Below are positions 13,581-63,231 of a stretch of DNA of 64,000 bases, piece after piece. The stretch is from contig CAZJTZ010000001.1 in the NCBI GenBank assembly GCA_964549105.1, positions 284,632 through 348,631 on the forward strand, written 5' to 3'. The stretch is from an uncultured Nitrospirales bacterium (GTDB lineage: Bacteria > Hydrogenedentota > Hydrogenedentia > Hydrogenedentales > Hydrogenedentaceae). The notes under the pieces are model-generated. The model was not told the DNA's origin. It made no database searches and was given only the letters and a program-made list of their open reading frames with translations. Position numbers and translations under genes: made by a program. Within the stretch, counting starts at the first letter, position 1; each line of letters begins with the position of its first letter.

Positions 13581-14552
13581 TCAAATAAATGTACGGGAAA
13601 CTTTATCAATCTCATCCATTTCTGATTCTGTTAAATTAAAATTAAAAGTTCCTAAATTCTGTTGTGCTTGTTCTATGCGTGTAGCACCGGGTATTGCAAC
13701 CACACGCTCTCCATGGAAATTAATAAGCCAGTTTAATGCCACTTGAGATGGTGTAGCGTCATGCTGTTTTGCAATTTTCTTTAATGTGTCAATGACAGGT
13801 TTTGTTCTTTCAAGTCCAGAAGGGCGATATAAGGGGAGATACTTTCGCCAACCTACCCGTGTCTTTATTAATTGAGGATTATCATGAAACTTTCCGGTAA
13901 GTAAACCCTGTTCCAATGGAGAATAAGCGATAATAGTGATACCTAATTCCTGAGCGGTTTTTAATGTCCCATCTTTTTCAATTTTACGATGAAGCAAACT
14001 ATAATGGACTTGATTGGACACAAGAGGGAATCCCAGTTTTTCGAGGTACGCATGGGCTTTTCGCATCTGATTTGCTGAATAATTGCTAACCCCAGCAGCA
14101 CGAATGACATTGGATTTGAGTAACTCTGCCATTATCTCCATTTCTCTTTCGATTGATGATAGTGAGGTAGGAGAATGGATTTGGTATAGGCTGATTTTAT
14201 AAGGAGCTAAACGCTGTATTTGTTCCTCGATAGAACGAAACATTCTTTTTGCTCTTCGTAAAATAGGATGCCATTTAGTAGCAATAATTACTTTCTCTAT
14301 GGGCACATTACCTTTTTGTAAACCTTGTGATACGCATTTTTCTGACGCACCCCAACCATACGCTTCAGCCGTATCAAACCAATTAATACCACCTTCCCAG
14401 GTTACTTTTATAATCTCATCACTCGGTACTTCTTCGAGCGAGGGCCAAATTTTACCAGGTAAACCAATCCTATTGCTAAATTGCCAGCAGCCGAGTCCCA
14501 GCGGGGTGATGAAAATATCACTCTCACCTAATTGTCTCCATTTAATATTCAT
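13581..14552 (-). CDS. Aldo/keto reductase family oxidoreductase.
   Basis: N-terminal LGLGCWQF, a 323-aa AKR architecture, and a catalytic tetrad context (…YQIHSP…). Confidence 0.8.
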   Translation of the reverse strand: MNIKWRQLGESDIFITPLGLGCWQFSNRIGLPGKIWPSLEEVPSDEIIKVTWEGGINWFDTAEAYGWGASEKCVSQGLQKGNVPIEKVIIATKWHPILRRAKRMFRSIEEQIQRLAPYKISLYQIHSPTSLSSIEREMEIMAELLKSNVIRAAGVSNYSANQMRKAHAYLEKLGFPLVSNQVHYSLLHRKIEKDGTLKTAQELGITIIAYSPLEQGLLTGKFHDNPQLIKTRVGWRKYLPLYRPSGLERTKPVIDTLKKIAKQHDATPSQVALNWLINFHGERVVAIPGATRIEQAQQNLGTFNFNLTESEMDEIDKVSRTFI

Positions 14553-47386: not shown

Positions 47387-49999
47387 ATGAATGAAGAAGA
47401 TAAAAGTAAAGACATAAAAGATGAAGAACAAGTAATAAGTGAATATAAGGAAAAAGTTCTTCAAGTTTTAAACCCAGAAGATAATAATTTAGATAAAAGC
47501 CACTGGGATTCTCCTGTTAAATCAGACACATCTGAAAAACAATCTCCTGAAACCCAGGAAGGAGAAATTTTAGACCAATCTGTTATAGATTCTCTATTTC
47601 AAAGCAATCAAAAGGATGGGGGCTCTGAACAGAAAAGCCAGGTTCAGGAAGAGAAATCTCAATCAACAACACAATCCAAAGAGGAAATTCTTCCCGATTT
47701 AGGACAAAAAGTTGTTGCTCCCCCTAAAAAACAAAATTCCGAAGTAGCACTCCTCAGCCAAGACGAAATAGAAGCATTAATCGAGTTGGCACAGAAAGAA
47801 GATAAAGAACGTCAGAAGAAAAAACAGGAAATATTAGAACATCTTGAAACCTCAACACAATTGACGGCTCCAATAAAATCTCAATTAAAACCAAAGATTA
47901 ATTTAAAAAAATATCTAATACCTATCACTTTAAGTTTAATATTAGGATTAGCAAGTGGTTTGGGGACTTATGTTTATCTTATGAGAAATAGAATAGCGAT
48001 TCCTGAAGAGGTAAGACCCACATATAGCAAGGATATATCTGCTGCAAAAGAATACGCCCAAATTTTAATAGAGGATAAACAATATTTTAGTGCAATATCT
48101 GTTCTAGAAGATGCTTTAAAAAATGACACAAAACCTTCCGCAGATAGAATAGACGCTCAATTTCTTCTTATAAAAGCAAAATATCTTTCAGGAAAAATAA
48201 CACCGGATTCAAGTGAATTTCAGGAACTCATATCTGACATGGAATCAGCAGTAAAAGAAAATCCTACCCATCCCATGGCTCCTCTTATTCTTTTTTGGAA
48301 AGGAAGGCTACATGAGGAAGACCATTTCCCTTATCCTGCAATAGACGCTTATGAGCGTATTATTCGGAATTATCCACAATTCGAAGCAAAAGATGAGGTG
48401 CTGTTTGCTCTAAGCCGACTCGAATTGCGAATGAATAATACAGTTAAATCGGTACAATGGGCACAACAATTAATAAAGGAATTCCCTGCATCTCGTTATG
48501 TATTGAGAGCAAGGTTTAATATTGCTGAGGCCTATAGAATAACAGGATTGATGGAAGATGCAAGAACACTATATATACGAATTGTAGATACGGCTCCCGA
48601 CACTGAGATAGCCTCTCTTGCTATATTACGCCTATCAGAGATGGCATATAATCAGGGTAGATATGAGCAAGCATTAGTTCAATTGGAAACGAAGTTAAAG
48701 CACATCAAACAGTTTCAATACAATGATGAGGCTTATCTTTTATTAGCAAAAACTTATAGGGCTCTTGGGAAATTAGAAGAAGCAAAAACAACGCTACAGG
48801 ATTTATTAGTGTTTTTTCCTAATTCCAGGGTCCATCCTCAGGCATGGATAGAGTTGAGCCAGATTTTCTATGCTCTAGGGAATAAGGAAAAAGCATTTCA
48901 AACTGCGAATGAAGCCTCTCTTCTCTACCCAAATCATCCCGAAGTGCTGGCAAACAAAGCCGATTTCCTTGCGCTACAAGGTAACACTTTCGCTTCTGCG
49001 GTTGCCTACCTTGAAGCAGAAAAGAACGGAGGAACGAATCCTTCCTACTTGTTAAAAGCAGGACAACTTTTAGTTTTATGCTCCCAATTAAATGAAGCCG
49101 TGACTACATTTGAGAAATTAAAGGACCGATACTACGGTACGAAGGAAGCACTATTAGGAAGTATTGACCGGGCTAAATGCCTATATAAATTAGGTAAAAT
49201 TCCTCTGGCTATCTCTGAACTTGAAGACTTGAAAAAACTTACCCCTTCCACTGATTCGGAATACAAAAACATACTAAAAAATTTGGCTTCTATGTATCAT
49301 GAACTCGGGCTTAAAGAAGCGGCTGTGGAAACCGCAAGTGAATGGTTCCAGATGGAAGATAATCCAGAAGAAAAAATAGAAGCAGGTCTTATTCTCCTCA
49401 ACAATGATAAAACAGAAATGGTTTATTCAAGTCTTAAAAATATTGATTTATCCCCTGTGAATAGAGAAAAGGCTCATAACTTTCTTTATTCCTTATCTAA
49501 AAAACTATTAGATAAAAATCCACCTGAAGGATTATCCCTCATTGAACAAGTTTATTATCAATATCCAGAATATCGGACACCCGAACTCCGATACTCTTTG
49601 TCCGAAGCATATATAAAAACGGAACGAACCACTTCTGCCCGTCGGATTATTCAAGACTGGGAAAATGAAGTTGGAACGAGCGAAGAGTCCGTGCGCGGTC
49701 TCATAGACGCAGAAATTATGTGGGGTGATTATATGTTTGAAATGAAAGAGTGGGATACAGCATCCAGTGCCTACAAAACAGCCATTCAAATTTCACAGAT
49801 AAAAGGCACTCCCTTACAGGGGGTAAAATATCCTATTGAATGGGCAAAATATCAATATGCAAACATACTTGTTGAAAAAACTAATTTTGAAGAAGCATTA
49901 AAAATACTTGAAGAAATTGCAAATTCAAATTCATCCATTTCTTCTATGGCACAATTAAAAATAGAACAGATAAAACTTGAAATGCTTGCAATGAAATAA
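47387..49999 (+). CDS. Membrane-anchored TPR-repeat protein (870 aa) with an acidic/Lys-rich low-complexity N-terminus.
   Basis: Single TM helix ITLSLILGLASGLGTYVYL at about residues 170-190. More than 10 TPR-like repeats follow it. Confidence 0.7.
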   Translation: MNEEDKSKDIKDEEQVISEYKEKVLQVLNPEDNNLDKSHWDSPVKSDTSEKQSPETQEGEILDQSVIDSLFQSNQKDGGSEQKSQVQEEKSQSTTQSKEEILPDLGQKVVAPPKKQNSEVALLSQDEIEALIELAQKEDKERQKKKQEILEHLETSTQLTAPIKSQLKPKINLKKYLIPITLSLILGLASGLGTYVYLMRNRIAIPEEVRPTYSKDISAAKEYAQILIEDKQYFSAISVLEDALKNDTKPSADRIDAQFLLIKAKYLSGKITPDSSEFQELISDMESAVKENPTHPMAPLILFWKGRLHEEDHFPYPAIDAYERIIRNYPQFEAKDEVLFALSRLELRMNNTVKSVQWAQQLIKEFPASRYVLRARFNIAEAYRITGLMEDARTLYIRIVDTAPDTEIASLAILRLSEMAYNQGRYEQALVQLETKLKHIKQFQYNDEAYLLLAKTYRALGKLEEAKTTLQDLLVFFPNSRVHPQAWIELSQIFYALGNKEKAFQTANEASLLYPNHPEVLANKADFLALQGNTFASAVAYLEAEKNGGTNPSYLLKAGQLLVLCSQLNEAVTTFEKLKDRYYGTKEALLGSIDRAKCLYKLGKIPLAISELEDLKKLTPSTDSEYKNILKNLASMYHELGLKEAAVETASEWFQMEDNPEEKIEAGLILLNNDKTEMVYSSLKNIDLSPVNREKAHNFLYSLSKKLLDKNPPEGLSLIEQVYYQYPEYRTPELRYSLSEAYIKTERTTSARRIIQDWENEVGTSEESVRGLIDAEIMWGDYMFEMKEWDTASSAYKTAIQISQIKGTPLQGVKYPIEWAKYQYANILVEKTNFEEALKILEEIANSNSSISSMAQLKIEQIKLEMLAMK

Positions 50000-50010
50000 G
50001 GGAACACAAA

Positions 50011-50454
50011 ATGCCATCTTCCAAAGAACAAAAAATTAAAAAATTTAATTATTGGGCACAGCGTCAAATTAAGTGGTTAGAATCACAAATTACAACTGCA
50101 GAAAAATTAAAATCTACTTTACAACAAAAACCTATTGACGAAATAGAGTCACTTGTGAGCCAACATGCAAGCCAGAGTAAGCAATTAGATACATTGATTA
50201 AGGAATACGATATTATTAAAAAAGAATTACAACAAAAAGAGCCCCATTACCAGCCTGACGCCGAAATTATATCTACTATAAAAAAATTGATTGAAGATTT
50301 AATAAAAATTAACAATGAAGTTTACCAGATTATTTTAAAACAACAAGAAAAACTCCAAAAAGAAATGGAATCATTTTTCCCCTTAAAAAATCGATTTAAT
50401 GGCTACAATTCACAAGATAAAACAAAATCAGAAAATTTGAATTATGATATCTAA
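50011..50454 (+). CDS. Hypothetical coiled-coil protein.
   Basis: 147 aa, K/E/Q-rich heptad pattern. Lies 11 nt downstream of the TPR gene and overlaps the kinase gene. Confidence 0.5.
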   Translation: MPSSKEQKIKKFNYWAQRQIKWLESQITTAEKLKSTLQQKPIDEIESLVSQHASQSKQLDTLIKEYDIIKKELQQKEPHYQPDAEIISTIKKLIEDLIKINNEVYQIILKQQEKLQKEMESFFPLKNRFNGYNSQDKTKSENLNYDI

Positions 50455-51640
50455 ACAAAAAAATAAAATGGTTTCTATCTCCCAGGAAGATTTAGAAAAC
50501 CTGACAAAAGCATTAGAAGAATTTAATCGAACCAGTAAATCATGGGAGCAAGCCTATTCCTTATTGCAAAAACAAATTGCAGAATTAAATAGCGAATTGG
50601 AGTGGAAAAACAGCGAATTGGCAATGACCTCTGAATATTTAAGCAATTTACTGGAATCCATTTCAGATGGGGTTATTGCTGTGGATTTGAATGATATAAT
50701 AAATCGCTTTAATCGTTCGGCTACTATAATCTCTGGATATAAATCTTCCGAAGTAATTGGGAAAACCTTTTCTGAAATTTTTCATCGTCCCTTTTTGATT
50801 ACAGACAGTGATGAAAATACTTATCAACTCCAAACAAAGACAGGAAGACTCATACCTATAACTGAGCGCGATTCCCTTATCACAGATGCACAGGGTGAAA
50901 TTATAGGACGGGTAAAGGTCTTTCAAGATTTGAGTGAAATACTTGAACTGAGAGCACATATCCAGCACAAAGAACGATTGGCTGTGATTGGAGAAATGGC
51001 TGCAACCATAGCCCATGAAATTCGGAATCCATTAGGAGGTATTCGAGGATTTACCTCATTTCTGGCACAAGACCTTTCCTCAGATGACCCGCGCCAGAGG
51101 TTTGTGAAAAAAATAATGCAGGGAATACAGTCTCTAGAACATATTATTAATGACCTATTAGAATACACACGCCCCATAGAGTTAAAACGAGAGAAAAAAC
51201 CTTTATCAGAATTAATAGGTGCAAGTTTAGAATTTATCTCCTACGACAAAAAAAAGATTGTAATACTGGTGCGGTGCTCACCCAAAATTATAATAGATTT
51301 AGATTTTGCTCGTATGAAACAGGTAATATCAAACATTGTTCTGAACTCCATTCAAAGTATTAACGATAAAGGAGAAATACAAATAATTGGGGAAGTGGAA
51401 GACAAGTTTGCAAGGATAGAAATCAAAGATAACGGCTGCGGAATAAAACCTGAAATATTACCTAAAATTTTTTCTCCTTTTACAACTACTAAAGAAAAAG
51501 GCACAGGTTTGGGATTAGCCCTCTGTGCTAAAATTATTGAAGCCCATGGGGGACAAATTAAAGCAGACAGCACGGTGGGTGTTGGAACTAAAGTAACAAT
51601 ATGGATACCGATTGAAGCAGATTTTCAAAATAATAGATAA
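50444..51640 (+). CDS. Cytoplasmic sensor histidine kinase (PAS-HisKA-HATPase).
   Basis: PAS-like segment (SISDGVIAVD…), H-box HEIRNPLGGIRGF, N/G1/G2 boxes (DNGCGIKPE, GTGLGLALC). No TM helices. Confidence 0.85.
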   Translation: MISKQKNKMVSISQEDLENLTKALEEFNRTSKSWEQAYSLLQKQIAELNSELEWKNSELAMTSEYLSNLLESISDGVIAVDLNDIINRFNRSATIISGYKSSEVIGKTFSEIFHRPFLITDSDENTYQLQTKTGRLIPITERDSLITDAQGEIIGRVKVFQDLSEILELRAHIQHKERLAVIGEMAATIAHEIRNPLGGIRGFTSFLAQDLSSDDPRQRFVKKIMQGIQSLEHIINDLLEYTRPIELKREKKPLSELIGASLEFISYDKKKIVILVRCSPKIIIDLDFARMKQVISNIVLNSIQSINDKGEIQIIGEVEDKFARIEIKDNGCGIKPEILPKIFSPFTTTKEKGTGLGLALCAKIIEAHGGQIKADSTVGVGTKVTIWIPIEADFQNNR

Positions 51641-51672
51641 ATCAAGATTGAGCACTGGCTAAGGGAAGAAGC

Positions 51673-53043
51673 ATGCCTAAAGCAAAAATTTTAGTGATTG
51701 ACGATGAACCTCTTATGCGTGAGTTTATAGAGGAAGCGATGACGCGTGCAGGTTATCGAGTTGTAAGTTCTGGAAACGGCGTAGAAGGAGTTGAATTTAT
51801 TAAAAACCAACCTTTCGATTTAATAATAACAGACCTAAAAATGAGCCCAGTAGATGGAATGGAAGTTTTAGGTGAAACTGTAAAAATATCTCCAGAAACA
51901 CCTGTAATTATTATGACTGCTTATGCAACAATTGATACAGCCATCGAAGCCCTGAAAAAAGGCGCTGTGGATTATTTAATTAAACCTTTCACCCCTGAGG
52001 TTATAGAAATTGCAGTAAAGCGTGTTTTAGACAAAGTCAAAATGAGTGCCGAGAATAAATTCCTCCGTTCTGAGTTAAATACCTATTTAGGCCCGCCTCA
52101 AATGATTGGGTCCAGCAAAGCAATGAAGGAACTTCATGAAAAGATAGCCAAAATTGCGGACTCTCGTTCGACCGTTCTTATTCGAGGGGAAACAGGTGTT
52201 GGTAAAGAGTTAGTCGCAAGAAGTATTCATCATATAAGTCCAAGACAAGATAAACCTTTTATAAAAGTAAATTGTGCTGCCCTGTCATCAGGAATCCTTG
52301 AAAGTGAACTTTTTGGACATGAAAGAGGCTCATTTACCGGGGCTTATGAAAGGAAAATAGGGCGTTTTGAACTTGCTAATGGCGGTTCTTTGTTATTGGA
52401 CGAAGTAAGTGAGATTCATGTGGACTTGCAACCCAAACTACTGCGTGCCCTACAAGAACGAGAGATAGAACGCGTAGGTGGAACCGAAACTATCTCTGTG
52501 GATGTTAGGATTATTGCTACCTCAAATAGAAATCTTGAAGATGCCGTAGAAAATAATTCCTTCCGTCGTGATTTATTTTATCGTTTGAATGTCATTACGC
52601 TATATGTACCTCCACTACGCGAAAGGAAGGAAGATATTCCTGAATTAGTTCATTATTTTTTGAAACGATTTTCAAAAGAGAATGGGAGAAACATTGAAAG
52701 TATTACAGAAAAGGCTATGAATCAATTTATGGAATATGACTGGCCCGGCAACATTCGCGAACTACAAAACATTATAGAACGGGCTGTTGTCCTCGCCGGA
52801 AAGAAGAAGATACTATCCGCAGAGGATTTTGAATTTTTTAAAATTCCAAGCCACACCATCAAAAATAATTCAAACCTTCAAGCAGGCATTACTTTAGCAG
52901 AAATGGAAAAAAATATTATCTTAAAAACTTTGGAACACTGTGATGGGAACAAAACAAAAGCGGCAGAAACTCTGGGTATAAGTGTCCGAACCCTCAGAAA
53001 CAAACTTCATGAATACGGAATGGTTAGAAGTCCAAACGACTAA
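51673..53043 (+). CDS. Sigma-54-dependent response regulator (NtrC family): REC + AAA+ sigma-54 activation domain + Fis-type HTH.
   Basis: Receiver VIDDEP…D…K. Walker A GETGVGKE, GAFTGA-type loop ESELFGHERGSFTGA, Walker B LLLDEV. C-terminal HTH KTKAAETLGISVRTLRNKL. Confidence 0.9.
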   Translation: MPKAKILVIDDEPLMREFIEEAMTRAGYRVVSSGNGVEGVEFIKNQPFDLIITDLKMSPVDGMEVLGETVKISPETPVIIMTAYATIDTAIEALKKGAVDYLIKPFTPEVIEIAVKRVLDKVKMSAENKFLRSELNTYLGPPQMIGSSKAMKELHEKIAKIADSRSTVLIRGETGVGKELVARSIHHISPRQDKPFIKVNCAALSSGILESELFGHERGSFTGAYERKIGRFELANGGSLLLDEVSEIHVDLQPKLLRALQEREIERVGGTETISVDVRIIATSNRNLEDAVENNSFRRDLFYRLNVITLYVPPLRERKEDIPELVHYFLKRFSKENGRNIESITEKAMNQFMEYDWPGNIRELQNIIERAVVLAGKKKILSAEDFEFFKIPSHTIKNNSNLQAGITLAEMEKNIILKTLEHCDGNKTKAAETLGISVRTLRNKLHEYGMVRSPND

Positions 53044-53064
53044 AAACAATAAATAAATTTAATA

Positions 53065-55314
53065 ATGACTCATGCGAAGCAGGTATTTTGTTTGATGAAC
53101 AAATTATTTATTAAAAAGCATAATACGAGTATATATATCTTTTTAATTTTAGCCATAGCATTCTTATTAAGAGTTATCTATTATTTTTATATTTCTAATC
53201 AAGCCGGGTTTTCTCATTTAATCTTAGACCCTCAATTTAACGACTACTGGGCACATAAAATACTTTACAGCGGGAATTTTCCTTCACCCACAGGCGAAGA
53301 CCCTATGATAGAAAAGACACCTTATGGGCGACCTCCCGGCTATCCATTCCTATTGGCTTTTATATATTTTCTTTTTGGCGATAATTATTATTCCCCACGA
53401 GTTATCCAATTTTTCGTCGGGATATTGAATGTATACTTAATTTTCTTTTTTGCCTCAAAGATATTTCATGATAAAAAGATAGGTTTGATAAGTGCACTTT
53501 TTATGGCAATACTCTGGGAACCTATATATTTTGAGGGAGAAATTAATTACCCAGTGTGGGCACTTACTTTAACGATTACACTCGTCGGAATTTCTTTGTT
53601 GTATTTGCAAAGAGAAAAAACAAAATGGGCATTTTTTATGGGGCTGTTGTTGGGATTATTTGCTCTATTCAGACCCAATGCCCTTCTCCTCTTTCCTATC
53701 TATCTAATACTCATTTTTATTAAGGTAAGAACTTCAGGCTTAAAGAAAATCGCAGCACACTTTGCACTTTTTGTAATACCCCTGTTAATTGTTATAGTGC
53801 CTGTTTTTATTAGAAACTACTTAGTCAGCCATGAGTTCTTTCTAATATCCTGTTTTGGAGGTGTGAACACTTATATAGGCAACAACCCCAAATCAACAGG
53901 AGACAGTCCCAATATCCCTGACATCATTAACCTGTGTGGCGTGGACAACTGGGACTGTTTCAACTACCGATTATTGGTGAAAGGTCTGGGAATAAAACAG
54001 GAAGGCAGACCTTACTCTTTTAGCGAAGCGTCTCATTTCTTTTATCAAAAGGCTTGTAATTTCTGGATACATGAACCTATCTCTGCTATAAAACTGACGA
54101 TCCGAAAGTTTCTATTGTTCTGGGGACCGCCCATCGTATCTGATGGGAAAGTAATTTGCTATGATAGAGATTCATCTATTCTTCGAATATTACCGGGTTT
54201 CCCCATAATATTGGGTTTATCTCTCTTTTTATTCATTTTAGTTATTTCAAAAAGGAAAAACATTTCAAGTGAATTGAAACTATCTGTTCTTTTCCTTTTT
54301 ATTTGGTGTTTTACCTATTCTTTTTCTGTCATTCCTTTCTTTGTATCAGAACGATATAGAGTGCCCATTATACCCCCATTATGTATGATGGGCGGAATTG
54401 GGTTCTCTGTATATGTCAACCACTTTGAAAAGCAAAATGCCCTTCAAAAGTTTAAAATGGCAATTATTTGTTTATTATGTTTTGCAGTTATTTACCTTAT
54501 TCCTGTAAGGTATAATCCTGAAAAGGCTCGTTGGTTTTATCATCAGGCAATAGTATCTTACAAAAGCCAGAAAGTAAATGATGCTATCTATAATGCCAAA
54601 AGGTCTATAGAAACTGACCCAAAATATTACGAAGCATATACTTTACTCGGTATAATCTCGTTAGAGCAGAAAGAACTCAAAGAATCTGAAAATTATTACT
54701 TAAAATCGCTATCCATAAACCCTGATTATGCTATGGCAACTAATAATTTAGGATATGTAATGGAATTGCAGGGGCAACTTGACCTGTCAGAAAAATATTA
54801 TAAAAAGGCATGTGAATTAAGTCCTGTTTACTCTCTGGCGTGGATTAATCTCGGACGAATTTACCTGTATCATCTGGAAAACTTTGAACAGGCAAAAAAC
54901 TGTTTCTTAAAATCTACGGAATTAGAACCCAACTCGTGGGCAGCCTGGTTCCACTTAGGAAATGTATTTGTTCAGACCCAGAAATATGATCTGGCTGAAC
55001 AATCGTTTCAAAAATCATTATCATTAAATCCAGAGAACCCCTATATACTTAACAATCTCGGATTTTTATTTATTCAAAAGCAGCAATACCCTGAAGCAAT
55101 AAATTATTTAAAGAAGTCTTTGGAAATTGAGCCAGACTTTGTTGATGCAATGTTTAATATGGCAAACGCACTAAAAGCCACGGGAAAAATTGAAGAGGCA
55201 AAAGTCTGGTATAAAAAGGTGTTAGAAAAAAATCCAGATTTTGAAGAGGCAAAGAATGAAATCAATCAATTAAATATTCAAGAAAATGATAGGCAAAAAA
55301 ACAATAATAAGTAA
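53065..55314 (+). CDS. GT-C fold polyprenyl-phosphate-sugar-dependent glycosyltransferase (PMT_2/ArnT-like, GT39/GT83-type) fused to C-terminal TPR repeats.
   Basis: Polytopic N-terminal domain with first-periplasmic-loop motif …YWAHKILYSGNF…YGRPPGYPFLLAFIYFLFG. The C-terminal roughly 250 aa carry at least six TPR units (AYTLLGIISLEQKELKESENYYLKSLSINPDY…). Confidence 0.75.
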   Translation: MTHAKQVFCLMNKLFIKKHNTSIYIFLILAIAFLLRVIYYFYISNQAGFSHLILDPQFNDYWAHKILYSGNFPSPTGEDPMIEKTPYGRPPGYPFLLAFIYFLFGDNYYSPRVIQFFVGILNVYLIFFFASKIFHDKKIGLISALFMAILWEPIYFEGEINYPVWALTLTITLVGISLLYLQREKTKWAFFMGLLLGLFALFRPNALLLFPIYLILIFIKVRTSGLKKIAAHFALFVIPLLIVIVPVFIRNYLVSHEFFLISCFGGVNTYIGNNPKSTGDSPNIPDIINLCGVDNWDCFNYRLLVKGLGIKQEGRPYSFSEASHFFYQKACNFWIHEPISAIKLTIRKFLLFWGPPIVSDGKVICYDRDSSILRILPGFPIILGLSLFLFILVISKRKNISSELKLSVLFLFIWCFTYSFSVIPFFVSERYRVPIIPPLCMMGGIGFSVYVNHFEKQNALQKFKMAIICLLCFAVIYLIPVRYNPEKARWFYHQAIVSYKSQKVNDAIYNAKRSIETDPKYYEAYTLLGIISLEQKELKESENYYLKSLSINPDYAMATNNLGYVMELQGQLDLSEKYYKKACELSPVYSLAWINLGRIYLYHLENFEQAKNCFLKSTELEPNSWAAWFHLGNVFVQTQKYDLAEQSFQKSLSLNPENPYILNNLGFLFIQKQQYPEAINYLKKSLEIEPDFVDAMFNMANALKATGKIEEAKVWYKKVLEKNPDFEEAKNEINQLNIQENDRQKNNNK

Positions 55315-55325
55315 TGGTTTGATAT

Positions 55326-57968
55326 ATGAATAAGCAAAAACGAGCAAATAGAGATTGGGTTATCCTGGCATGGATTCTTTTACTTGCCTTTGTGCTGAGA
55401 ATCATCTATTTGTGGCAGATAGTAGATGCTCCCGATTTTATTGCTCTTCGCCAGGATTTGGATGTTCAGGATTATCAAGCGAGGGCTATGTTATCTGGCG
55501 ACTGGTCTTTACGCGAAGGGGTCTCTGACCCACATATACCAACGACTCCTTATTACCGTCCCCCAGGTTATACCTACTTTCTCGCCGTTGTGTATTGGCT
55601 TTTTGATGGTTCCTACCTTGCACCTCGATTAATTCAGTTCACGCTTGGAATACTTCATATCCTCCTAATCTACTTTCTAACCAGAAAACTTTTTAATCGT
55701 GTAGCAGGTTTGTGTTCAGCATTTCTCGTCTCTATCTATTGGGCATTTATTTACTACGAGGGGGAAGTAAATGACCCTGCCCTATTTATTTTTCTCGTCC
55801 CATGTATTCTATTTTGCCTGCATTATGCAATCTCAAAAGATTTTGTGCTTTCTTCTTCCCTTTCAGGATTGCTTATTGGCGTCTATGCCATTATGCGTCC
55901 CAATATTTTGTTGTTTATCCCTTTTGTAATACTCTGGATGTTATTTATCTACTACCAAAAACGAAAATTAATAAGTTGCCTTTTTCATATCCTTTCTCTT
56001 TGTTTAGTGGCAATTGCAGTTATTTTTCCTGTAACACTTCGCAATTATCTTGTATCGGGTGAATTTGTGCCTATCTCTACCTACTTTGGGGAGAATTTAT
56101 TGATTGGGAACAGCAAAGACGCCGACGGAGTAACACCGTGGCTACCTTATCTACAAGATTTAGAAGGAACAGGAAATTGGTCTGTATGGCACTATGACAA
56201 TGTCGTCAAAGGCTTAGGTAAATCGCTGGGTAGAGAGGTAACTCATTCAGAAGCGTCAAATATTTTTGCAAAAATGGCACTTGATTATGTTATTCATCAT
56301 CCATGGAAAACCTTTGTATTAACCCTTAAAAAAGCCGTTTTGTTCTGGAGTCCAAAAGAAATAACCGAGAATAAAGTAGTAGAAGGAGAAAGACAGTATT
56401 ATATTCCTTTGAAATATCTGCCAAGATTTCCAATAGTTCTCAGTACTTTTTTGTTTGGATTGTTATTTTTACTTCACAATATATTTAGAAAGAAAGAACG
56501 AATTAAAACAGAGAATATTTATCTGCTTTCTCTTATTCTCCTATTTATTTTTAGTTATTACATTTCATTCTTGCCTTTTTTTGTAAATGCACGAGCACGC
56601 GTCCCTTTGCTGGGGATAATGCTTATCTTCGGAGGATATGGAATTGCCGAAATTATAAACCTCCTAAAAACAAAAAAAATCAAATTGGCTGTGTTAAACA
56701 ATCTGATTCTGATTTTCCTCTTTCTATTAGTTCACATTGAAATTATTCCATACAAACCTGATATGTGTCGCTGGCATTATGACCGTGCAGATTCGTTTCT
56801 TCGAGTTGGGCGTGTTGAGGAAGCTATACAGGAAGTTTATGCACTCATGAAGCAACCTGAACGACCTATGACCTATATGCCTTTCCGACTGGGGCATGCC
56901 TTTGCAAAATTAAACTATCCAGAACTTGCTGTAAATTTGTTGAGGCTTGCATTAAGCCCCGACCCATCTGAACAACCACCGATGTATCGTGAGGACATTC
57001 ATTACCACATCGGAGCCCAACTTCTAAAATTGAAACGCTACGATGAAGCCATACAGGAGTTTGAAAAAGCACTTTCCATAAATCCCAAAGACCCACGGGC
57101 TCATAATGATTTGGGGGTAATTTATAAAGACAGAGGAAATCTTCAAAAAGCAGAAAGTTATTTCATAAATTCTATTGAAATTGAACCTGAGTTTAACCTT
57201 GCCATTATTAATTTAACAGACTTGTATGTGCAGCAAAACAAATTTTTAGACGCCATACAACTTCTGGAAAAAAGCCTGAAACTAAAACCAAATGATTTAG
57301 AATTTCTCTATAATTTAGGATATGTGTATCACCTTTCTGGGCGTTACGATGAAGCCCTTACCTACTATAATAAGGTCTTATCTATAAAAAACAATGAGCC
57401 TGCAACACTTAACAATATGGCTATGATTTTTTCAGCGAAAGATGATTTTGAACAAGCCAAAAAGACTCTCCGACTGTGCATTGATAAAAACCCGTATTAT
57501 ACACTTGCTTACGCAAATTATGGGGATATTCTGTATACCGAAAATCAAAAAGTCGAAGCAGCCTATTTTTACAGTAAGGGTCTGGAAACCAATCCAGAAC
57601 ATATAGGTTTACGAATGGCTTTATCCAGAATTTATGTAGAACTTGGACAAGCAGCAAAAGGCATTTCGGAATTATTAGAAGGGTTAGATAAAAACCCATC
57701 TTCACCAGATTTATGGTTTGCCTTAGGGAATATTTATAATGGAAATAAAGAATATGATAAAGCAATTGAATGTTTTGAGAAGGTCATATCCATTGATAGT
57801 TCTTTTGTCGAGGCTTATCAAAATTTAATGGAGGTTTACCTTATAAAAAAAGACATTGATAAGGCATCGGAATTGTTAGAAAAAGCGAAACAACAAATTA
57901 AAGATTCTGAACAGATTGGATTCTTATTAGAGAAAATTCAAATAATTAAAGAAGAGAAAAACAAATGA
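55326..57968 (+). CDS. Second GT-C fold PMT_2/ArnT-like glycosyltransferase fused to C-terminal TPR repeats (paralog of the preceding gene).
   Basis: Equivalent loop motif DVQDYQARAMLSGDW…YYRPPGYTYFLAVVYWLFDG. The C-terminal roughly 380 aa carry TPR repeats. Confidence 0.75.
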   Translation: MNKQKRANRDWVILAWILLLAFVLRIIYLWQIVDAPDFIALRQDLDVQDYQARAMLSGDWSLREGVSDPHIPTTPYYRPPGYTYFLAVVYWLFDGSYLAPRLIQFTLGILHILLIYFLTRKLFNRVAGLCSAFLVSIYWAFIYYEGEVNDPALFIFLVPCILFCLHYAISKDFVLSSSLSGLLIGVYAIMRPNILLFIPFVILWMLFIYYQKRKLISCLFHILSLCLVAIAVIFPVTLRNYLVSGEFVPISTYFGENLLIGNSKDADGVTPWLPYLQDLEGTGNWSVWHYDNVVKGLGKSLGREVTHSEASNIFAKMALDYVIHHPWKTFVLTLKKAVLFWSPKEITENKVVEGERQYYIPLKYLPRFPIVLSTFLFGLLFLLHNIFRKKERIKTENIYLLSLILLFIFSYYISFLPFFVNARARVPLLGIMLIFGGYGIAEIINLLKTKKIKLAVLNNLILIFLFLLVHIEIIPYKPDMCRWHYDRADSFLRVGRVEEAIQEVYALMKQPERPMTYMPFRLGHAFAKLNYPELAVNLLRLALSPDPSEQPPMYREDIHYHIGAQLLKLKRYDEAIQEFEKALSINPKDPRAHNDLGVIYKDRGNLQKAESYFINSIEIEPEFNLAIINLTDLYVQQNKFLDAIQLLEKSLKLKPNDLEFLYNLGYVYHLSGRYDEALTYYNKVLSIKNNEPATLNNMAMIFSAKDDFEQAKKTLRLCIDKNPYYTLAYANYGDILYTENQKVEAAYFYSKGLETNPEHIGLRMALSRIYVELGQAAKGISELLEGLDKNPSSPDLWFALGNIYNGNKEYDKAIECFEKVISIDSSFVEAYQNLMEVYLIKKDIDKASELLEKAKQQIKDSEQIGFLLEKIQIIKEEKNK

Positions 57969-59152
57969 GTCTCTCTTCCAACAATATAACGAATAGCCAG
58001 AATAATGGAATAGAATTAAGCGTTATTCTTCCTTGTCTAAACGAAGAACGGACTATTGTTCAATGTATAAATAAAATTAAAGAAGTTTTAGAAAAGAATC
58101 AAATACAGGGGGAGATAATTGTAGCAGACAATAACTCCACAGACAATTCCGCTTCTCTTGCCGAGTCTGCTGGTGCTAAATTAATTCAGGTTCTTTCTCC
58201 GGGATATGGAAACGCATTGAGATATGGAATTAAAAACTCGCAGGGAAAATATATTATTTTTTTTGATTCTGATTTATCTTATGACCCGGAAGATATTCCC
58301 GCACTCCTTTCTAAATTACGAGAAGGTGCGTCTATTGTCATCGGCTCTCGGAAGAATGGGAGTATTGATAAAGGTTCTATGCCATGGCATCATAGATACA
58401 TTGGAACACCCATAATGACGCTACTTGCAAATCTCCTTTTTAAAACAAACATTTCTGATATAAACTCAGGTATGCGTGGAATGTCCCGTGAAGCCTTTGA
58501 ACGATTGGATTTGCATTCGGAAGGGATGGAATTTGCTTCTGAAATGATAGCAAAAGCATATTGGACAAAAATGGAGATTGCAGAAGTCCCCATTCATTTT
58601 CATTGTGACCAGAGAGGACGACGGCCCCACTTGCATTCCGTTCGCGATGGGTGGAGACATTTACAACTTATGTTCCATTATTGTTCTGTCAATTGGTTTT
58701 TTATCCCGGGGTTCTTATTACTGGCAGTTTCATATCTGACCTTTTTACTCCTTCCCTATTATCTAAATATCTACTCTTCTTTTTTTATTTCTTTGCTAAC
58801 AAATATTCTTGCTACAGAAATATTATTAATCGGTGTTATTGCTCAGGGTAGAGTCAGGGGCTCAAAATTTCGATATTCGCCCTCGCGGTATTTAAAGTTT
58901 CTATCAAAGGTTATCAAAGTTGAAAAGGGTATGATTCTTGGGCTAGGAATATGTGTTCTGGGTATTTTTACGGCAGTTCAATCTTTGAACTCCTCAAATG
59001 TTTTAGAAAAAAACCTATTTACTGACCCAAAATTGTTCCTATGGGGAATCTTATTTTTGGTTCAAGGTATTCAAATCTTGTTTAGTTCCATTCTAATTGG
59101 TCTATTTGGTATTCGCGTTTCTGAAGAGGAAGAATTTTTTAGAAAACTTTAA
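57965..59152 (+). CDS. GT2 polyprenyl-phosphate sugar synthase (DPM1/GtrB/ArnC-like) with C-terminal transmembrane helices.
   Basis: LSVILPCLNEERTI, ADNNSTDNS and FFDSDLSYDP (DxD). C-terminal hydrophobic helices (FFIPGFLLLAVSYLTFLLL…). Overlaps the upstream gene by 4 nt. Confidence 0.85.
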   Translation: MSLSSNNITNSQNNGIELSVILPCLNEERTIVQCINKIKEVLEKNQIQGEIIVADNNSTDNSASLAESAGAKLIQVLSPGYGNALRYGIKNSQGKYIIFFDSDLSYDPEDIPALLSKLREGASIVIGSRKNGSIDKGSMPWHHRYIGTPIMTLLANLLFKTNISDINSGMRGMSREAFERLDLHSEGMEFASEMIAKAYWTKMEIAEVPIHFHCDQRGRRPHLHSVRDGWRHLQLMFHYCSVNWFFIPGFLLLAVSYLTFLLLPYYLNIYSSFFISLLTNILATEILLIGVIAQGRVRGSKFRYSPSRYLKFLSKVIKVEKGMILGLGICVLGIFTAVQSLNSSNVLEKNLFTDPKLFLWGILFLVQGIQILFSSILIGLFGIRVSEEEEFFRKL

Positions 59153-59176
59153 TATCGTCAGGGTTATAATATTTAT

Positions 59177-60631
59177 ATGGTTCATATTGTTTTTGTAATG
59201 CCGCCTTATCCTTATTCTCAGTCCATTGGGAATCAAGGAGGAAAAAAGCAAATTGGATTGATGCCCCCTTTGGGAGTAGGGTATCTTACTGCCTATCTGG
59301 AACAGACAGGGAGATATCGTTGCAGTTTTGTAGACGCCGTTGCAGAAAGATTAACTGTCTCTGAAACAGCAAAAAGGATTATAGACTTAAAACCCGACGC
59401 TATAGGAATCTCTTCCTTTACTACTTTTTTGCTAAATTCTGCTTACGAACTTGCAACAGAATTAAAACATGCACTACCTACTACACCTTTAATTATAGGT
59501 GGACCTCACACAACCTCCTTTGGTGAACATATATTAATAGATTGTCCTGACATTGACTATGTGATACCCGGAGATGGAGAAATCCCTCTATTAGAATTAC
59601 TTGAATGCCTTCATTCAGGGAAAGAACCTAACTCAGTAAAAGGACTTATTTATAAAGATAAAGAGGGAAATATTATTGATACAGGTTGTTCTAATGTTGT
59701 TGAAGACCTGGACATTTTCCCTTTTCCTGCAAGGCATATTTATAACCAGGAATTGTATGAACCTCTACCCAGTTTAAGTCCAAAACGACCTGTTACCTCG
59801 ATGATTACATCGCGAGGCTGTCCATGGGCTCGGTGCAAGTTTTGCTATCAGGGAGGCAAGTATGCTTCCCCTTTCCGTAGAAGGTCTCCTGAAAATGTCG
59901 TTGCAGAAATAAAAGATTTGATTAAACAATATCAAATCAAAAATATCGTATTCTGGGATGACAACTTCTGTATTTACCCGGAATGGATTCACAAATTCTG
60001 TGCCCTAATGAAGCAAGAAAAAATAAATATAGATTGGTCTGTGCTTTCGCGTGTAAATACCGTAACAAAGGAAATGCTTCAAGAAATGGCAGAGGTAGGG
60101 TGTTATAGTATTCAATTTGGTATTGAATCGGGCAACCCGGAAATACTGAAACTTATTAATAAAGGGCATACCATAGAACAATGTAAAAAGGCTGTGCACT
60201 GGGCAAAAGAGGCAGGAATGGAGACTCGCGCCTTCTTTGTATTGGGTTTCCCCACAGAAACACCTGAAATGAGTGAAAAAACCATCCAATTTGCCTGTGA
60301 ACTAAATATTGATTATGTTGTATTTTTTTCTTATTATGTAGCACCGGGGACACCTCTTGCTGAAATAGCGATGCGAGAAGGACAGTGTTTTAATTTTGTA
60401 GGACAACACCTGCCCTCCTATCTTCCTAATACTTACCCTGATTTAGGAACATTAACAAAGAAAGTCCAGTCTGCATATAGAAGATACTACCTCAGACCCC
60501 GTTATTTTGCAAGAACCATTGCACGAACTATAAGAAGACCTCTCCACTTAAAAAACCAAATCAAGGCTTTCAATTATTGGCTTGGATTAAGTTTAAGAAG
60601 GTGGTCAGACACTAAAAAAACAACAGAATAA
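59177..60631 (+). CDS. B12-binding domain radical SAM protein (class B radical SAM enzyme).
   Basis: N-terminal B12-binding Rossmann-like domain (…DAIGISSFTT…IIGGPHTT…). Radical SAM core with cysteine triad GCPWARCKFC (spacing C-x4-C-x2-C as read). C-terminal region of about 150 aa. Confidence 0.75.
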   Translation: MVHIVFVMPPYPYSQSIGNQGGKKQIGLMPPLGVGYLTAYLEQTGRYRCSFVDAVAERLTVSETAKRIIDLKPDAIGISSFTTFLLNSAYELATELKHALPTTPLIIGGPHTTSFGEHILIDCPDIDYVIPGDGEIPLLELLECLHSGKEPNSVKGLIYKDKEGNIIDTGCSNVVEDLDIFPFPARHIYNQELYEPLPSLSPKRPVTSMITSRGCPWARCKFCYQGGKYASPFRRRSPENVVAEIKDLIKQYQIKNIVFWDDNFCIYPEWIHKFCALMKQEKINIDWSVLSRVNTVTKEMLQEMAEVGCYSIQFGIESGNPEILKLINKGHTIEQCKKAVHWAKEAGMETRAFFVLGFPTETPEMSEKTIQFACELNIDYVVFFSYYVAPGTPLAEIAMREGQCFNFVGQHLPSYLPNTYPDLGTLTKKVQSAYRRYYLRPRYFARTIARTIRRPLHLKNQIKAFNYWLGLSLRRWSDTKKTTE

Positions 60632-60649
60632 AGAATTACAATAAGAGGA

Positions 60650-62116
60650 TTGTTTATGAAAATGAAAATTTTTTCTATATGCTTATGTGTATCTATATTT
60701 TTACTCCTATCCTTTGTTAGAACAGGATTTTCTGAGGAGGTTTATAACATAAGCAATCGCAGGGAAATATTTATTGATAATAAGTTGATTGGATACATGG
60801 AAAATGCGTCGTTAAAATTGTGCGAACCCATTGCTGCCGAAAAAGTCTTGTATTTTGACAAACCCTGGGAAGGAAAATACAGTGGCTATATCACTTTAAT
60901 ACATGATAAAGACACATATCGCATGTATTATAGAGGACTTCCTACATCAAAACATGATGGCTCAGAAACTGAAGTTACTTGCTATGCAGAGAGTTCCGAT
61001 GGAATTCATTTTACAAAACCATCTCTTGGATTATTTGAGGTTATGGGGACAAAGGATAATAATATAGTCCTTGCCCATGACCCTCCCTTTTCTCATAATT
61101 TTGCTCCTTTTCTCGATGAAAAACCAAATATCCCTAAAGAAGAACGGTATAAAGCAGTTGCAGGTATCCATAACAGCGGACTATTTGCATTTGTCTCTGG
61201 TGATGGAATAAATTGGCAAAAGCTATCGGACCAACCTATATTAAAAGAAAAAACATTTGCACTTGACTCTCAAAATGTGGCTTTCTGGTCAATATCCGAA
61301 GGAAAATATGTTTTATATTTCAGGAGTTGGAACGGGCCTAATTCTGAATTTCGCTGGATTAGCCGAACTACAAGTACAGATTTTATAAATTGGGATGAAC
61401 CTGTTGTAATGGACAAAGGAAGTGCTCCATGGGAACATATCTATATTAACCAGACCATTCCTTATTTCAAGGCACCGCATATATATATCTCTCTGGGTGC
61501 TCGTTTTGTGCCCGGCTGTAAAGCACTTACCGATGAAGAAATCAAGTTGCTTGGTGTCGAAGAAGCCTACAGCCATGACTGTTCCGATGTTATTCTAATG
61601 AGCAGTCGTGGAAGCAATATTTATAATAGACTTTTCCTGGAAGCCTTTATCAAACCGGAATATCCCATTGAAAATTGGGTTTCTCGAACCAATTATCCTG
61701 TTCGAGGAATTGTCCCTGCGAATGATTATCAAATGGCTATCTATATCCATAAAAACTACGCCCAGGATACTGCTTATGTCCAGAGATACTTACTGCGTCT
61801 TGATGGCTTTACCTGTGTAAAAACGGGATATCTAGAAGGATTGATTAAAACCAAACCTATTATCTTTAAGGGCGAAAATCTATACTTGAATTTTGCCTCA
61901 TCCGCAGTAGGCTATATTCAGGTAGAAATACAGGATAAAGAAGGAAAACCCATCCCGGGTTATGAACTAAATGAATCTATCCCTCTCATTGGAAATAAAA
62001 TTGATATGAAACCTACATGGAAAAACAATAAAAATTTATCAGATTTGCAGGGAATACCTATCATACTCTTGTTTAAGATGAAAGATACAGACTTGTTCGC
62101 CTTTCAATTCAAATAG
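60650..62116 (+). CDS. Secreted BNR/Asp-box repeat beta-propeller protein (sialidase-like glycoside hydrolase superfamily).
   Basis: Signal peptide MKIFSICLCVSIFLLLSFV. Asp-box-like motifs SSDGIHFTK, SGDGINWQK and STDFINWDE. Confidence 0.55.
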   Translation: MFMKMKIFSICLCVSIFLLLSFVRTGFSEEVYNISNRREIFIDNKLIGYMENASLKLCEPIAAEKVLYFDKPWEGKYSGYITLIHDKDTYRMYYRGLPTSKHDGSETEVTCYAESSDGIHFTKPSLGLFEVMGTKDNNIVLAHDPPFSHNFAPFLDEKPNIPKEERYKAVAGIHNSGLFAFVSGDGINWQKLSDQPILKEKTFALDSQNVAFWSISEGKYVLYFRSWNGPNSEFRWISRTTSTDFINWDEPVVMDKGSAPWEHIYINQTIPYFKAPHIYISLGARFVPGCKALTDEEIKLLGVEEAYSHDCSDVILMSSRGSNIYNRLFLEAFIKPEYPIENWVSRTNYPVRGIVPANDYQMAIYIHKNYAQDTAYVQRYLLRLDGFTCVKTGYLEGLIKTKPIIFKGENLYLNFASSAVGYIQVEIQDKEGKPIPGYELNESIPLIGNKIDMKPTWKNNKNLSDLQGIPIILLFKMKDTDLFAFQFK

Positions 62117-62130
62117 TAAAGAAAGGAACT

Positions 62131-63231
62131 GTGTATATGCTTCTTTTTATTCTATTATCCTTTACTTGCTTTTCTAATCAAGATATGAATATTGAGCAAG
62201 TCCCTTTTTACAAAGATAAAACGAATCTGCTCTACTATATTGACAAATCAGGAGAGATTCAAAAGATAAGAAATAAAACAGACTGGGCTATAAGAAAAAA
62301 TCATATTCTCAATAATATGCTTCTGGTCATGGGTCATTTACCAAATCGCTCTTCCCTACCTCCATTGGATATGGAAATTGAAAATGTAGAAGATATGAAC
62401 ACTTATTGGAGAAAGAAGATTTGGTTTAATGCAGAACTGAATGACCGACTTTCTGCATATCTATTAGTTCCTAAAAATATTGATAGAAAATTGCCTGCAA
62501 TTGTTTGCTTACATCAAACAGTAGACATAGGAAAAGCAAGTCCCGTAGGAATAGGGGACCATAAAAATCGTCACCTGGCAAAAGAATTGGCAGAAAGGGG
62601 TTATATTGTAATTGTTCCAGATTATCCGGGTTTTGGTGAATATAAAGTTGATGTATATACAATGGGATATGCAAGTGCAACGGCAAAGGGAATCGGGAAT
62701 CATCGGCGATGTATTGATTTACTTCAATCGTTAGAGGAAGTAGACCCTGAGAGAATAGGTGCGATAGGACATTCATTAGGTGGACATAATACGCTATTCC
62801 TTGGTGCTTTTGATGAACGGATAAAGGTAATGGTAACCAGTTGCGGGTTTACAAGTATGAAAAAATATTACAATGGTAATTTAACAGGTTGGTCACATAA
62901 AGGATATATGCCGCGTATTGCAGAGAAATATCAATGCAATCCAGACTTACTTCCCTTTGATTTTACAGAAGTTCTCGGTATACTTGCTCCCCGTCCTGTC
63001 TTTATAAATGCCCCTTTACATGACCATAATTTTGAAGTAACAGGGGTAGATGATTGTGTTTCATCTGCGAAAAAGGTTTATCAACTATTTAACGCTGAAG
63101 ATAAAATCCAGGTAGTTCATCCCGATTGTGGCCATGATTTTCCCCCTGAAACTCGAGAAGAAGCATATCGTTTTTTAGATAAATATTTGCAGTTTACACC
63201 AAAAATTTCAACTATTTCTAATCTCTTTTAA
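62131..63231 (+). CDS. Secreted alpha/beta hydrolase (dienelactone-hydrolase / acetyl-esterase-like).
   Basis: GTG start. Signal peptide. Nucleophile elbow IGHSLGG. C-terminal HPDCGHDFP (catalytic His context). Confidence 0.7.
   Translation: MYMLLFILLSFTCFSNQDMNIEQVPFYKDKTNLLYYIDKSGEIQKIRNKTDWAIRKNHILNNMLLVMGHLPNRSSLPPLDMEIENVEDMNTYWRKKIWFNAELNDRLSAYLLVPKNIDRKLPAIVCLHQTVDIGKASPVGIGDHKNRHLAKELAERGYIVIVPDYPGFGEYKVDVYTMGYASATAKGIGNHRRCIDLLQSLEEVDPERIGAIGHSLGGHNTLFLGAFDERIKVMVTSCGFTSMKKYYNGNLTGWSHKGYMPRIAEKYQCNPDLLPFDFTEVLGILAPRPVFINAPLHDHNFEVTGVDDCVSSAKKVYQLFNAEDKIQVVHPDCGHDFPPETREEAYRFLDKYLQFTPKISTISNLF

Follow-up and report, generated by a model that had tools for sequence, protein, structure and literature searches.

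One question raised by the locus described here is what kind of enzyme is formed when a membrane glycosyltransferase is joined to tetratricopeptide repeats (TPRs), and to which acceptor such an enzyme would deliver its sugar. The locus lies in a 64,000-nucleotide stretch of DNA (the window; positions 284,632 to 348,631 of contig CAZJTZ010000001.1, assembly GCA_964549105.1) from an uncultured bacterium assigned to the Hydrogenedentota. A sequence-only reading of the window had pointed out two adjacent open reading frames (ORFs) of 749 and 880 amino acids; coordinates and lengths proved exact, and the two genes, here named A and B, lie on the + strand with an intergenic gap of 11 nt. A and B are paralogous PMT_2-family GT-C transferases fused to TPRs. 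Since this architecture has been described before, in a large family, the pair is an uncharacterised new instance; the conserved module to which it belongs is real. Concerning function, we propose that A and B act as paired enzymes at the periplasmic face, fed by the product of a neighbouring family 2 glycosyltransferase (GT2) gene and most likely acting on proteins, a model to which, taken as a whole, we give an even chance.

Domain architecture, fold and candidate active site

Pfam analysis located PMT_2 (PF13231; gathering cut-off 26.1 bits) at residues 89-247 of A (45.6 bits) and 78-236 of B (46.3 bits), and many TPR families were matched by the C-terminal parts of both proteins, with E values of 1e-30 to 1e-46. 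At E<=0.01 the matches of A comprised 23 families, namely PMT_2, TPR or TPR-like families and four weak, sub-threshold helical-repeat families. When both proteins were aligned by BLASTP, 32% identity was obtained over 746 columns (E 9e-103) covering both domains, which bears out the paralogy claimed from the sequence. The TPR spans measured about 260 amino acids in A and about 395 in B, matching the 250-380 that had been estimated. Orthologues at 63-72% identity are present in related genomes, which indicates that A and B are real conserved genes. In the AlphaFold2 (AF2) model of A, read together with the topology, loop 1 of the membrane domain contains two juxtamembrane helices, JM1 (54-67) and JM2 (92-104), and the fourth periplasmic loop is large (251-378). 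The closest natural solved sequence to the TPR domain of A is the TPR domain of human OGT (E 1e-52), and Asn occupies the position of the OGT asparagine ladder in four of the seven A repeats, as read by eye rather than computed.

The multi-helix membrane core of the A N-terminal domain superposed on solved GT-C enzymes. The paired figures of this fold comparison were 23.5 and 342 for Pmt4, 23.2 and 345 for archaeal AglB, 21.9 and 337 for ArnT, 21.9 and 336 for ALG12, 20.0 and 308 for GPI mannosyltransferase I, 19.4 and 353 for Pmt2, 18.1 and 391 for STT3B, and 17.6 and 355 for AftA. Judged from the model, the N-terminal domain of A is a GT-C-fold glycosyltransferase.

Eleven membrane segments were counted in A, with family-averaged hydropathy peaks at residues 24-36, 118-127, 145-149, 166-175, 192-203, 205-215, 235-244, 382-390, 409-422, 440-445 and 467-475. 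The density of K+R was high at the N-terminus (0.22) and in the loops predicted to be cytoplasmic (181-187, 220-228, 396-404 and 453-464; 0.23-0.35), and low in loop 1 (0.07), in loop 2 (156-162; 0.00) and at the junction between the eleventh transmembrane (TM) helix and the TPR domain (0.06). These 11 hydrophobic segments and the positive-inside charge bias together predict that the N-terminus is cytoplasmic, that there are 11 TM helices and that the TPR domain lies in the periplasm. A further hydrophobic helix (92-104), located just after the RPPGY motif, stays below the family-level hydropathy threshold and is the counterpart of the ArnT juxtamembrane helix that begins at K85, the second of the two (PMC7801869); if it were counted as a span, 12 helices would result and the TPR domain would wrongly be placed in the cytoplasm. 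Both points on which the sequence-only reading hung therefore hold, since the TPR region is predicted to be periplasmic and the GT-C catalytic loop is present on alignment.

Conservation was assessed in an alignment of 86 family sequences in which B was included as a row. Residues D55, P80, P90, P91, Y93, R112, G119, E157, R250, N251, G272, N273, F326, F379, S421 and R430 were invariant (86/86), and D79, R89, R203, N205 and R432 were conserved in at least 90% of the sequences. D55 provides the conserved acidic residue of the first extracytoplasmic loop after TM1 that characterises GT-C enzymes, and it is the candidate for the catalytic Asp/Glu that had been recommended for inspection. When the family profile was compared with E. 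coli ArnT using hhalign, a weak match was obtained (27% probability, E 7e-4, 87 columns), confined to loop 1 to TM2. In this match the family string 'LDPQFNDY-WAHKILYSGNFPSP...TPYGRPPGYP' is paired with the ArnT segment ending 'LRYFEKPIAGYW', and the D55 segment is placed opposite the PDETRY segment of ArnT. The description of the first-loop motifs as ArnT-type agrees with this alignment, and the two motifs quoted were located at residues 87-95 of A and 76-85 of B. The preceding segment, given as YxxxxxxSGxW, is exact in B (Y-QARAML-SGDW), whereas in A it is one residue longer and ends in F instead of W (Y-WAHKILY-SGNF).

In ArnT (structures 5ezm/5f15) the active site includes D55/E56 of loop 1; E84/K85, at the second loop-1 helix, take part in metal and phosphate binding; D158 lies in loop 2 just before TM4 and is salt-bridged to K203, which lies in loop 3 just after TM5; and R270/Y271 stand at the start of loop 4 (PMC7801869). 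A phosphate-binding Arg in loop 5 near TM10 is found in the TMTCs and the oligosaccharyltransferases (OSTs), not in ArnT (PMC7801869). Going by topological position beyond loop 1, the counterparts in A would be D55 for D55/E56, R89 for E84/K85, E157 for D158, R203 for K203, R250/N251 for R270/Y271, and R430/R432 for the loop-5 Arg of TMTCs and OSTs. The Arg residues at phosphate-binding positions, together with the GT2 neighbour, hint indirectly at a polyprenyl-phosphate-linked sugar as donor. All of the invariant residues are kept in B, so neither paralogue looks inactive, and the idea that one of them is a dead pseudoenzyme was rejected.

Spread of the family and age of the A-B pair

A search with residues 1-492 of A returned 195 proteins, the named ones belonging to metagenome-assembled genomes (MAGs) of Candidatus Hydrogenedentes or Hydrogenedens. 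All but three of the 120 listed among these 195 matches combined PMT_2 with TPRs, with lengths of 577-858 amino acids. The full-length matches are named only 'tetratricopeptide repeat protein' by NCBI, and one truncated match is named 'glycosyltransferase family 39 protein'. With the N-terminal domain family, a HMMER search of 1.84 billion cluster representatives gave 13,765 matches at E<=1e-3, 5,408 at 1e-10 and 767 at 1e-30. Sixty representatives evenly sampled from the best 150 were analysed with Pfam, and PMT_2 was found in all 60 and TPR families in 56. Pattern scanning, with each species represented by a single genome, yielded 178 loci, essentially all from MAGs, distributed among Hydrogenedentota, Planctomycetota (Phycisphaerae, Pirellulales), Latescibacterota, Gemmatimonadota, Eisenbacteria, Verrucomicrobiota and Acidobacteriota. 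The proportion of sampled representatives with TPRs and the 767 representatives at E<=1e-30 indicate that the TPR fusion is the rule, and no oddity, in a sizeable bacterial family that is uncharacterised. The suggestion that such a fusion is unusual for a bacterial ArnT could not be upheld, because the proteins are not ArnT and nearly all sampled relatives carry the repeats. Nor are PMT and OGT the nearest precedents for it, since Pseudomonas aeruginosa TfpW, TMTC1-4 and TMEM260 are closer.

The N-terminal domain of A is 63% and 41% identical to those of its orthologues, and that of B 72% and 52%, whereas any A compared with any B gives 33-37%. This indicates that A and B are two separate orthologous lineages. 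When the fetched family loci were surveyed with tblastn, the A-orthologue was followed immediately by a B-orthologue on the same strand at each locus for which downstream DNA was present (loci L001, L002, L003=L015, L009-L013, L020 and L027). The A-then-B order occurs in at least 10 Hydrogenedentota genomes, with a spacing among genomes of either an 11-nt gap or a 4-nt overlap, and the size difference is conserved (A, 726-749 amino acids; B, 837-973). One family copy was present in 70 of the 86 fetched loci and two or more in 16; the loci of other phyla and the third-paralogue loci of Hydrogenedentota described below mostly have a single copy. From the separate lineages and their adjacency across loci it follows that the duplication is old and that A and B form a module conserved within a subclade of Hydrogenedentota. 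Diversified acceptor specificity, which had been read from the tandem arrangement, is possible, and the fixed order fits obligate co-function equally well. Together with the tight spacing, it fits independent, sequential and heterodimeric working of A and B alike.

The Hydrogenedens genomes carrying the A-B pair also have, on other contigs (loci L024, L026, L030 and L031), one or more additional family members. These are about equally distant from A and B (36-40%), occur as single genes and thus represent a third paralogue lineage.

Donor, acceptor and competing explanations

The best PDB matches of the GT2 encoded after B were the Pyrococcus dolichyl-phosphate-mannose (Dol-P-Man) synthase 5mlz (E 1e-17), ArnC (6e-11) and GtrB (3e-10), and its NCBIfam matches (AglJ, PpgS and a Dol-P-hexose transferase) were all below cut-offs. 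Since the closest solved relatives are all polyprenyl-phosphate glycosyltransferases, this GT2 probably makes the donor, as a synthase of a polyprenyl-phosphate-linked sugar. The supply of a GT-C transferase by a GT2 synthase is an established logic (PMC11127046), and here, as in three-component systems, the two are encoded together. In seven loci of related genomes (L001, L002, L009-L012 and L059) the GT2 adjoins B and is followed by a gene for a radical S-adenosylmethionine (radical-SAM) enzyme. A Hydrogenedens relative keeps the whole block of A-like, B-like, GT2 and radical-SAM genes followed by those for a 485-489-amino-acid protein and a hydrolase. A, B, the GT2 and the radical-SAM enzyme make up a compact four-gene module.

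In the model that we favour, the adjacent GT2 would charge undecaprenyl phosphate with one sugar at the cytoplasmic face, the lipid-linked sugar would be flipped by a flippase that has no gene in the cluster, and A and B would pass it on, at the periplasmic face, to an acceptor which their TPR domains hold or select. D55 in loop 1 would be the catalytic or acceptor-activating residue, the donor phosphate would be bound by R89, R250 and R430/R432, and E157 and R203 may form a loop-2/loop-3 pair as in ArnT. The acceptors would be exported or envelope proteins, O-glycosylated at Ser/Thr as with TfpW, TMTC1-4 and TMEM260, and the two paralogues might cover different acceptors, or different sites, within one pathway. 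A protein is rated the most likely class of acceptor, with a chance of nearly one half, because the studied systems that combine 11 TM helices with an extracytoplasmic TPR domain (TfpW and TMTC1-4) concern proteins. The closeness in sequence of the A TPR domain to that of OGT was counted in the same direction.

TfpW of P. aeruginosa is a GT-C enzyme of 646 amino acids that transfers D-arabinofuranose (D-Araf) to pilin; its sugar is polyprenyl-phosphate-linked, its membrane part is best templated by ArnT and its C-terminal part by the TPR domain of OGT, and PhoA/LacZ fusions place its loop 1 and TPR domain in the periplasm, the central segments being indeterminate (bioRxiv 10.1101/2020.04.19.049825). 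Compared by description, A and B resemble it in the cytoplasmic N-terminus, the 11 predicted TM helices, the acidic motif of loop 1 (essential in TfpW) and the C-terminal TPR domain predicted to be periplasmic. Unlike tfpW, a single gene located directly downstream of pilA and dependent on D-Araf synthesis genes, A and B form a conserved pair followed by a GT2 resembling Dol-P-Man synthase, and neither pilA nor D-Araf genes are near them.

TMTC1-4 have 11 TM helices, a cytoplasmic N-terminus and a lumenal TPR domain, as deduced from sequence analysis and earlier experiments; they belong to the cadherin O-mannosylation pathway and are proposed O-mannosyltransferases, their own transferase activity not having been directly demonstrated (PMC7801869). 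With A and B they share the (here predicted) 11 TM helices and extracytoplasmic C-terminal TPR domain, ArnT as closest solved structure, several paralogues per genome, and the motifs: a loop-1 Asp, a base before the second loop-1 helix, a loop-2 acid/loop-3 base pair and a loop-5 Arg (PMC7801869). TMTCs differ in having a DUF1736 signature in loop 4, a Dol-P-Man donor in the endoplasmic reticulum and no operon context, whereas A and B fall in PMT_2. DUF1736 was matched neither in A (Pfam, E<=0.01) nor among the best 25 families of B, and assignment to TMTC was rejected on this sequence criterion. Assignment to the PMTs (Pmt1-Pmt2, Pmt4, POMT1-POMT2; GT39) was rejected as well: these enzymes have a MIR beta-trefoil in loop 5 and no C-terminal TPRs, and PMT (PF02366), MIR and PMT_4TMC were unmatched in A and among the best families of B, within the same limits.

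In the Gtr-type three-component systems (GtrA/GtrB/Gtr*, GT136) a GT2 synthase is encoded next to at least one periplasmic GT-C (PMC11127046). The likeness to the present locus lies in a GT2 polyprenyl-phosphate sugar synthase encoded beside GT-C transferases; the differences are that no flippase gene lies in our cluster, that the accessory domain is made of TPRs where Gtr enzymes have none or a carbohydrate-binding module, and that the Gtr acceptor is O-antigen. We propose, by analogy, that A and B may work like TfpW and the TMTCs without belonging to those families.

Several observations weigh against the model of GT2-fed periplasmic transferases acting on proteins. No solved structure, ArnT included, was matched when all PDB chains were searched by phmmer with the N-domain of A as a single sequence (E<=1) or with a 14-sequence family profile (E<=10), and with these searches empty the link of the domain to solved GT-Cs is one of fold comparison only. 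The topology is a prediction from hydropathy, charge bias and homology. The ArnT residue equivalences are positional, and the hhalign match, at its 27% probability, covers no more than loop 1 to TM2. Among the genes of the cluster (47387-63231) there is no flippase ORF of the GtrA, SMR or MATE type. No pilin appeared in Pfam scans of the A/B neighbours, no obvious glycoprotein gene adjoins the pair, and no acceptor candidate was found next to it. In more distant genomes the A-B pair occurs without an adjacent GT2, as in one 5.1-Mb genome with adjacent A-like and B-like genes. Finally, TPR domains are found in scaffolds for polysaccharide export as well, and their presence is therefore no proof of a protein acceptor.

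This last point leads to the alternative that survives best. It keeps the same enzymology and topology and takes as acceptor a non-protein envelope glycoconjugate (lipopolysaccharide core, O-antigen, exopolysaccharide or a peptidoglycan-associated polymer), the TPR domain docking to an assembly or export machine; we consider it unlikely, if well within reason. TPR modules do act as periplasmic scaffolds in BcsC, PgaA and PelB-type systems. Most characterised bacterial systems of GT2 plus GT-C decorate glycans (PMC11127046), and the best NCBIfam TPR matches of the pair are envelope assembly proteins (PilW, PrsT, Tgl, LapB, BcsC and PgaA), all below cut-offs; this similarity is generic, however. 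In another genome, family members lie among SGNH/GDSL esterases, which are typical of glycan modification. The cluster itself continues with a 488-amino-acid protein modelled as a GH130/GH43-like propeller and with an alpha/beta hydrolase that is carbohydrate-esterase-like. The propeller family is very widespread, though, its homologues numbering more than 6,441 across many phyla, and the gene is probably an unrelated catabolic one. TfpW and the TMTCs, which share the design of 11 TM helices plus TPRs, act on proteins or in protein O-mannosylation, and this argues for the protein acceptor.

A different alternative concerns the relation between the two enzymes: A and B may be an obligate heterodimer, like Pmt1-Pmt2, POMT1-POMT2 or EmbA-EmbB, instead of independent enzymes. 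The fixed order in at least 10 genomes, with a gap of 11 nt or an overlap of 4 nt, suggests coupled translation; both lineages have been kept since before these genomes diverged, and all invariant residues are kept in both proteins. PMTs act as dimers (PMC7759382), and EmbA and EmbB, the products of adjacent genes, are joined in a complex (structure 7bvf); both were counted in favour of this possibility. Against it, the 70 single-copy loci among the 86 fetched imply that the fold needs no paralogous partner, and distinct acceptor roles would account just as well for the conserved difference in TPR length. Overall an obligate heterodimer appears doubtful. Its most elaborate form, an obligate A-B heterodimeric periplasmic protein O-glycosyltransferase whose TPR arms select envelope proteins and whose GT2-made donor is altered (for example C-methylated) by the radical-SAM enzyme, is improbable; if true, it would mean that Hydrogenedentota possess a protein glycosylation pathway not described before.

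The possibility that A and B are ArnT-type transferases of aminoarabinose, or a similar sugar, to lipid A, placed under the control of the upstream two-component genes and conferring cationic peptide resistance, was rejected as very improbable. ArnT has 13 TM helices, a C-terminal periplasmic domain of its own, lipid A as acceptor and an arn operon, none of which applies here: A has 11 predicted helices, TPRs replace the ArnT periplasmic domain, no homologue of ArnA, ArnB, ArnD, ArnE or ArnF was found in the cluster by Pfam scans of the neighbours, and no full-length sequence relationship to ArnT was obtained. Furthermore, no ArnT model appeared among the listed NCBIfam matches of A and B, the GT2 is nearer to Dol-P-Man synthase than to ArnC, and the kinase and regulator genes are absent at the syntenic locus of the nearest relatives. 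Hardly credible at all is a cytoplasmic TPR domain, or a pair of non-catalytic TPR scaffolds with a degenerate membrane anchor, which can appeal to the count of 12 segments with the C-terminus inside (every hydrophobic helix included, 92-104 too) and to the sole NCBI name 'tetratricopeptide repeat protein', and which was rejected on the charge bias, which favours 11 TM helices with the C-terminus outside, on the sub-threshold position of helix 92-104 and its ArnT counterpart, on the 16 membrane-domain residues, known GT-C active-site positions among them, that are invariant across 86 sequences, and on the periplasmic location of the TfpW TPR domain by PhoA fusion.

TMEM260 is a protein-specific GT-C O-mannosyltransferase with a TPR domain. 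If the acceptor of A and B is a protein, the family would represent, in bacteria, a widespread equivalent of the TMTC and TMEM260 O-mannosyltransferases of animals, and periplasmic protein O-glycosylation would be indicated in phyla without prior knowledge of such glycosylation. At present the result is a sound improvement of the annotation 'tetratricopeptide repeat protein' and no surprise.

The gene cluster and its surroundings

A and B are part of a series of ten + strand genes (47387-63231) separated by gaps of at most 32 nt or overlapping. Downstream of B, in this order, are the genes for the GT2, a B12-binding radical-SAM enzyme, the 488-amino-acid protein, which is secreted, and the alpha/beta hydrolase. 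The features of the pair and its immediate neighbours are listed in Table 1.

Table 1. Positions in the window of genes A and B, their domains and motifs, and adjoining genes
Feature	Coordinates	Strand	Basis or remark
PAS histidine kinase and sigma-54 (NtrC-type) response regulator	50444..53043	+	21 nt upstream of A; absent upstream of A in L001/L002
Gene A, GT-C (PMT_2) glycosyltransferase fused to TPRs, 749 amino acids	53065..55314	+
A membrane domain, residues 1-480, 11 predicted TM helices	53065..54504	+	AF2 helices, hydropathy peaks, K+R loop bias
A first-loop segment LDPQFNDYWAHKILYSGNF, with invariant D55 (candidate catalytic Asp) and helix JM1	53224..53280	+	aligned to ArnT segment
A motif YGRPPGYPF (R89, P90, P91, Y93), residues 87-95	53323..53349	+	at position of ArnT YFEKP / K85 (phosphate-binding)
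A motif YFEGE, invariant E157, periplasmic loop 2	53527..53541	+	at position of ArnT D158
A motif FRPN (R203, N205), periplasmic loop 3	53668..53679	+	at position of ArnT K203
A motif IRNY (invariant R250, N251), end of TM7/start of loop 4	53809..53820	+	at position of ArnT R270/Y271
A motif SERYRVP (invariant R430, near-invariant R432), loop 5 before TM10	54346..54366	+	at position of TMTC/OST phosphate-binding Arg
A TPR domain, residues 487-749, 7 TPRs and capping helix, predicted periplasmic	54523..55311	+	Pfam, AF2 model
Gene B, paralogue of A with the same architecture, 880 amino acids	55326..57968	+	all 16 family-invariant residues kept
B membrane (GT-C) domain, residues 1-478	55326..56759	+	Pfam PMT_2, alignment to A throughout
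B first-loop segment QDLDVQDYQARAMLSGDW, counterpart of A D55 and JM1	55452..55505	+
B motif YYRPPGYTYF, residues 76-85	55551..55580	+
B TPR domain, residues 486-880, about 9-11 repeats	56781..57965	+	Pfam, alignment to A
GT2 with membrane helices at its C-terminus; 4-nt overlap with the B stop	57965..59152	+	Pfam Glycos_transf_2
B12-binding radical-SAM enzyme, directly after the GT2	59177..60631	+	conserved

The radical-SAM gene is the most conserved of the cluster, with 71-80% identity in relatives, and always stands right after the GT2. Its best NCBIfam matches, BchE and HpnJ, reached only about 184 bits, compared with cut-offs of 481 and 578.

Upstream of A, a block of four + strand genes (47387-53043) encodes an 870-amino-acid TPR protein, a 147-amino-acid FlgN-like coiled-coil protein, the PAS histidine kinase and the sigma-54 NtrC-type regulator. 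It sits between a conserved gene for a 302-amino-acid response regulator and A, and is missing from the otherwise syntenic loci L001 and L002. The block is a window-specific insertion and not part of the conserved module. The sigma-54 -24/-12 motif gave 27 matches versus 23 +/- 6 expected, none of them well placed upstream of A. Sigma-70 sites (68, with 63.5 expected) and terminators (11, with 12.6 expected) did not permit the boundaries of transcription units to be drawn.

In locus L006 (ENA contig NODE_1756, 55.9 kb) a distance of about 3.5 kb separates two family members, which are interleaved with four GDSL/SGNH lipase-like genes and an AXE1-like esterase gene, a recurring neighbourhood that might be a hint of a glycan-related role.

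Elsewhere in the window, a second, short GT2 of 250 amino acids is encoded at 12347-13099 (-), far from the A/B cluster, and a 1,168-amino-acid protein with a Peptidase_C25 (gingipain-like) domain and a propeptide at 30374-33880 (-). Glycan-processing genes are located at 240-2657 (+), 3439-6570 (+), 14549-15682 (-) and 44931-46295 (-); they encode an SLT lytic transglycosylase with 8 LysM repeats, a GH38 alpha-mannosidase, a BNR sialidase-like protein and an alpha-L-fucosidase, a repertoire that fits a glycan-degrading lifestyle.

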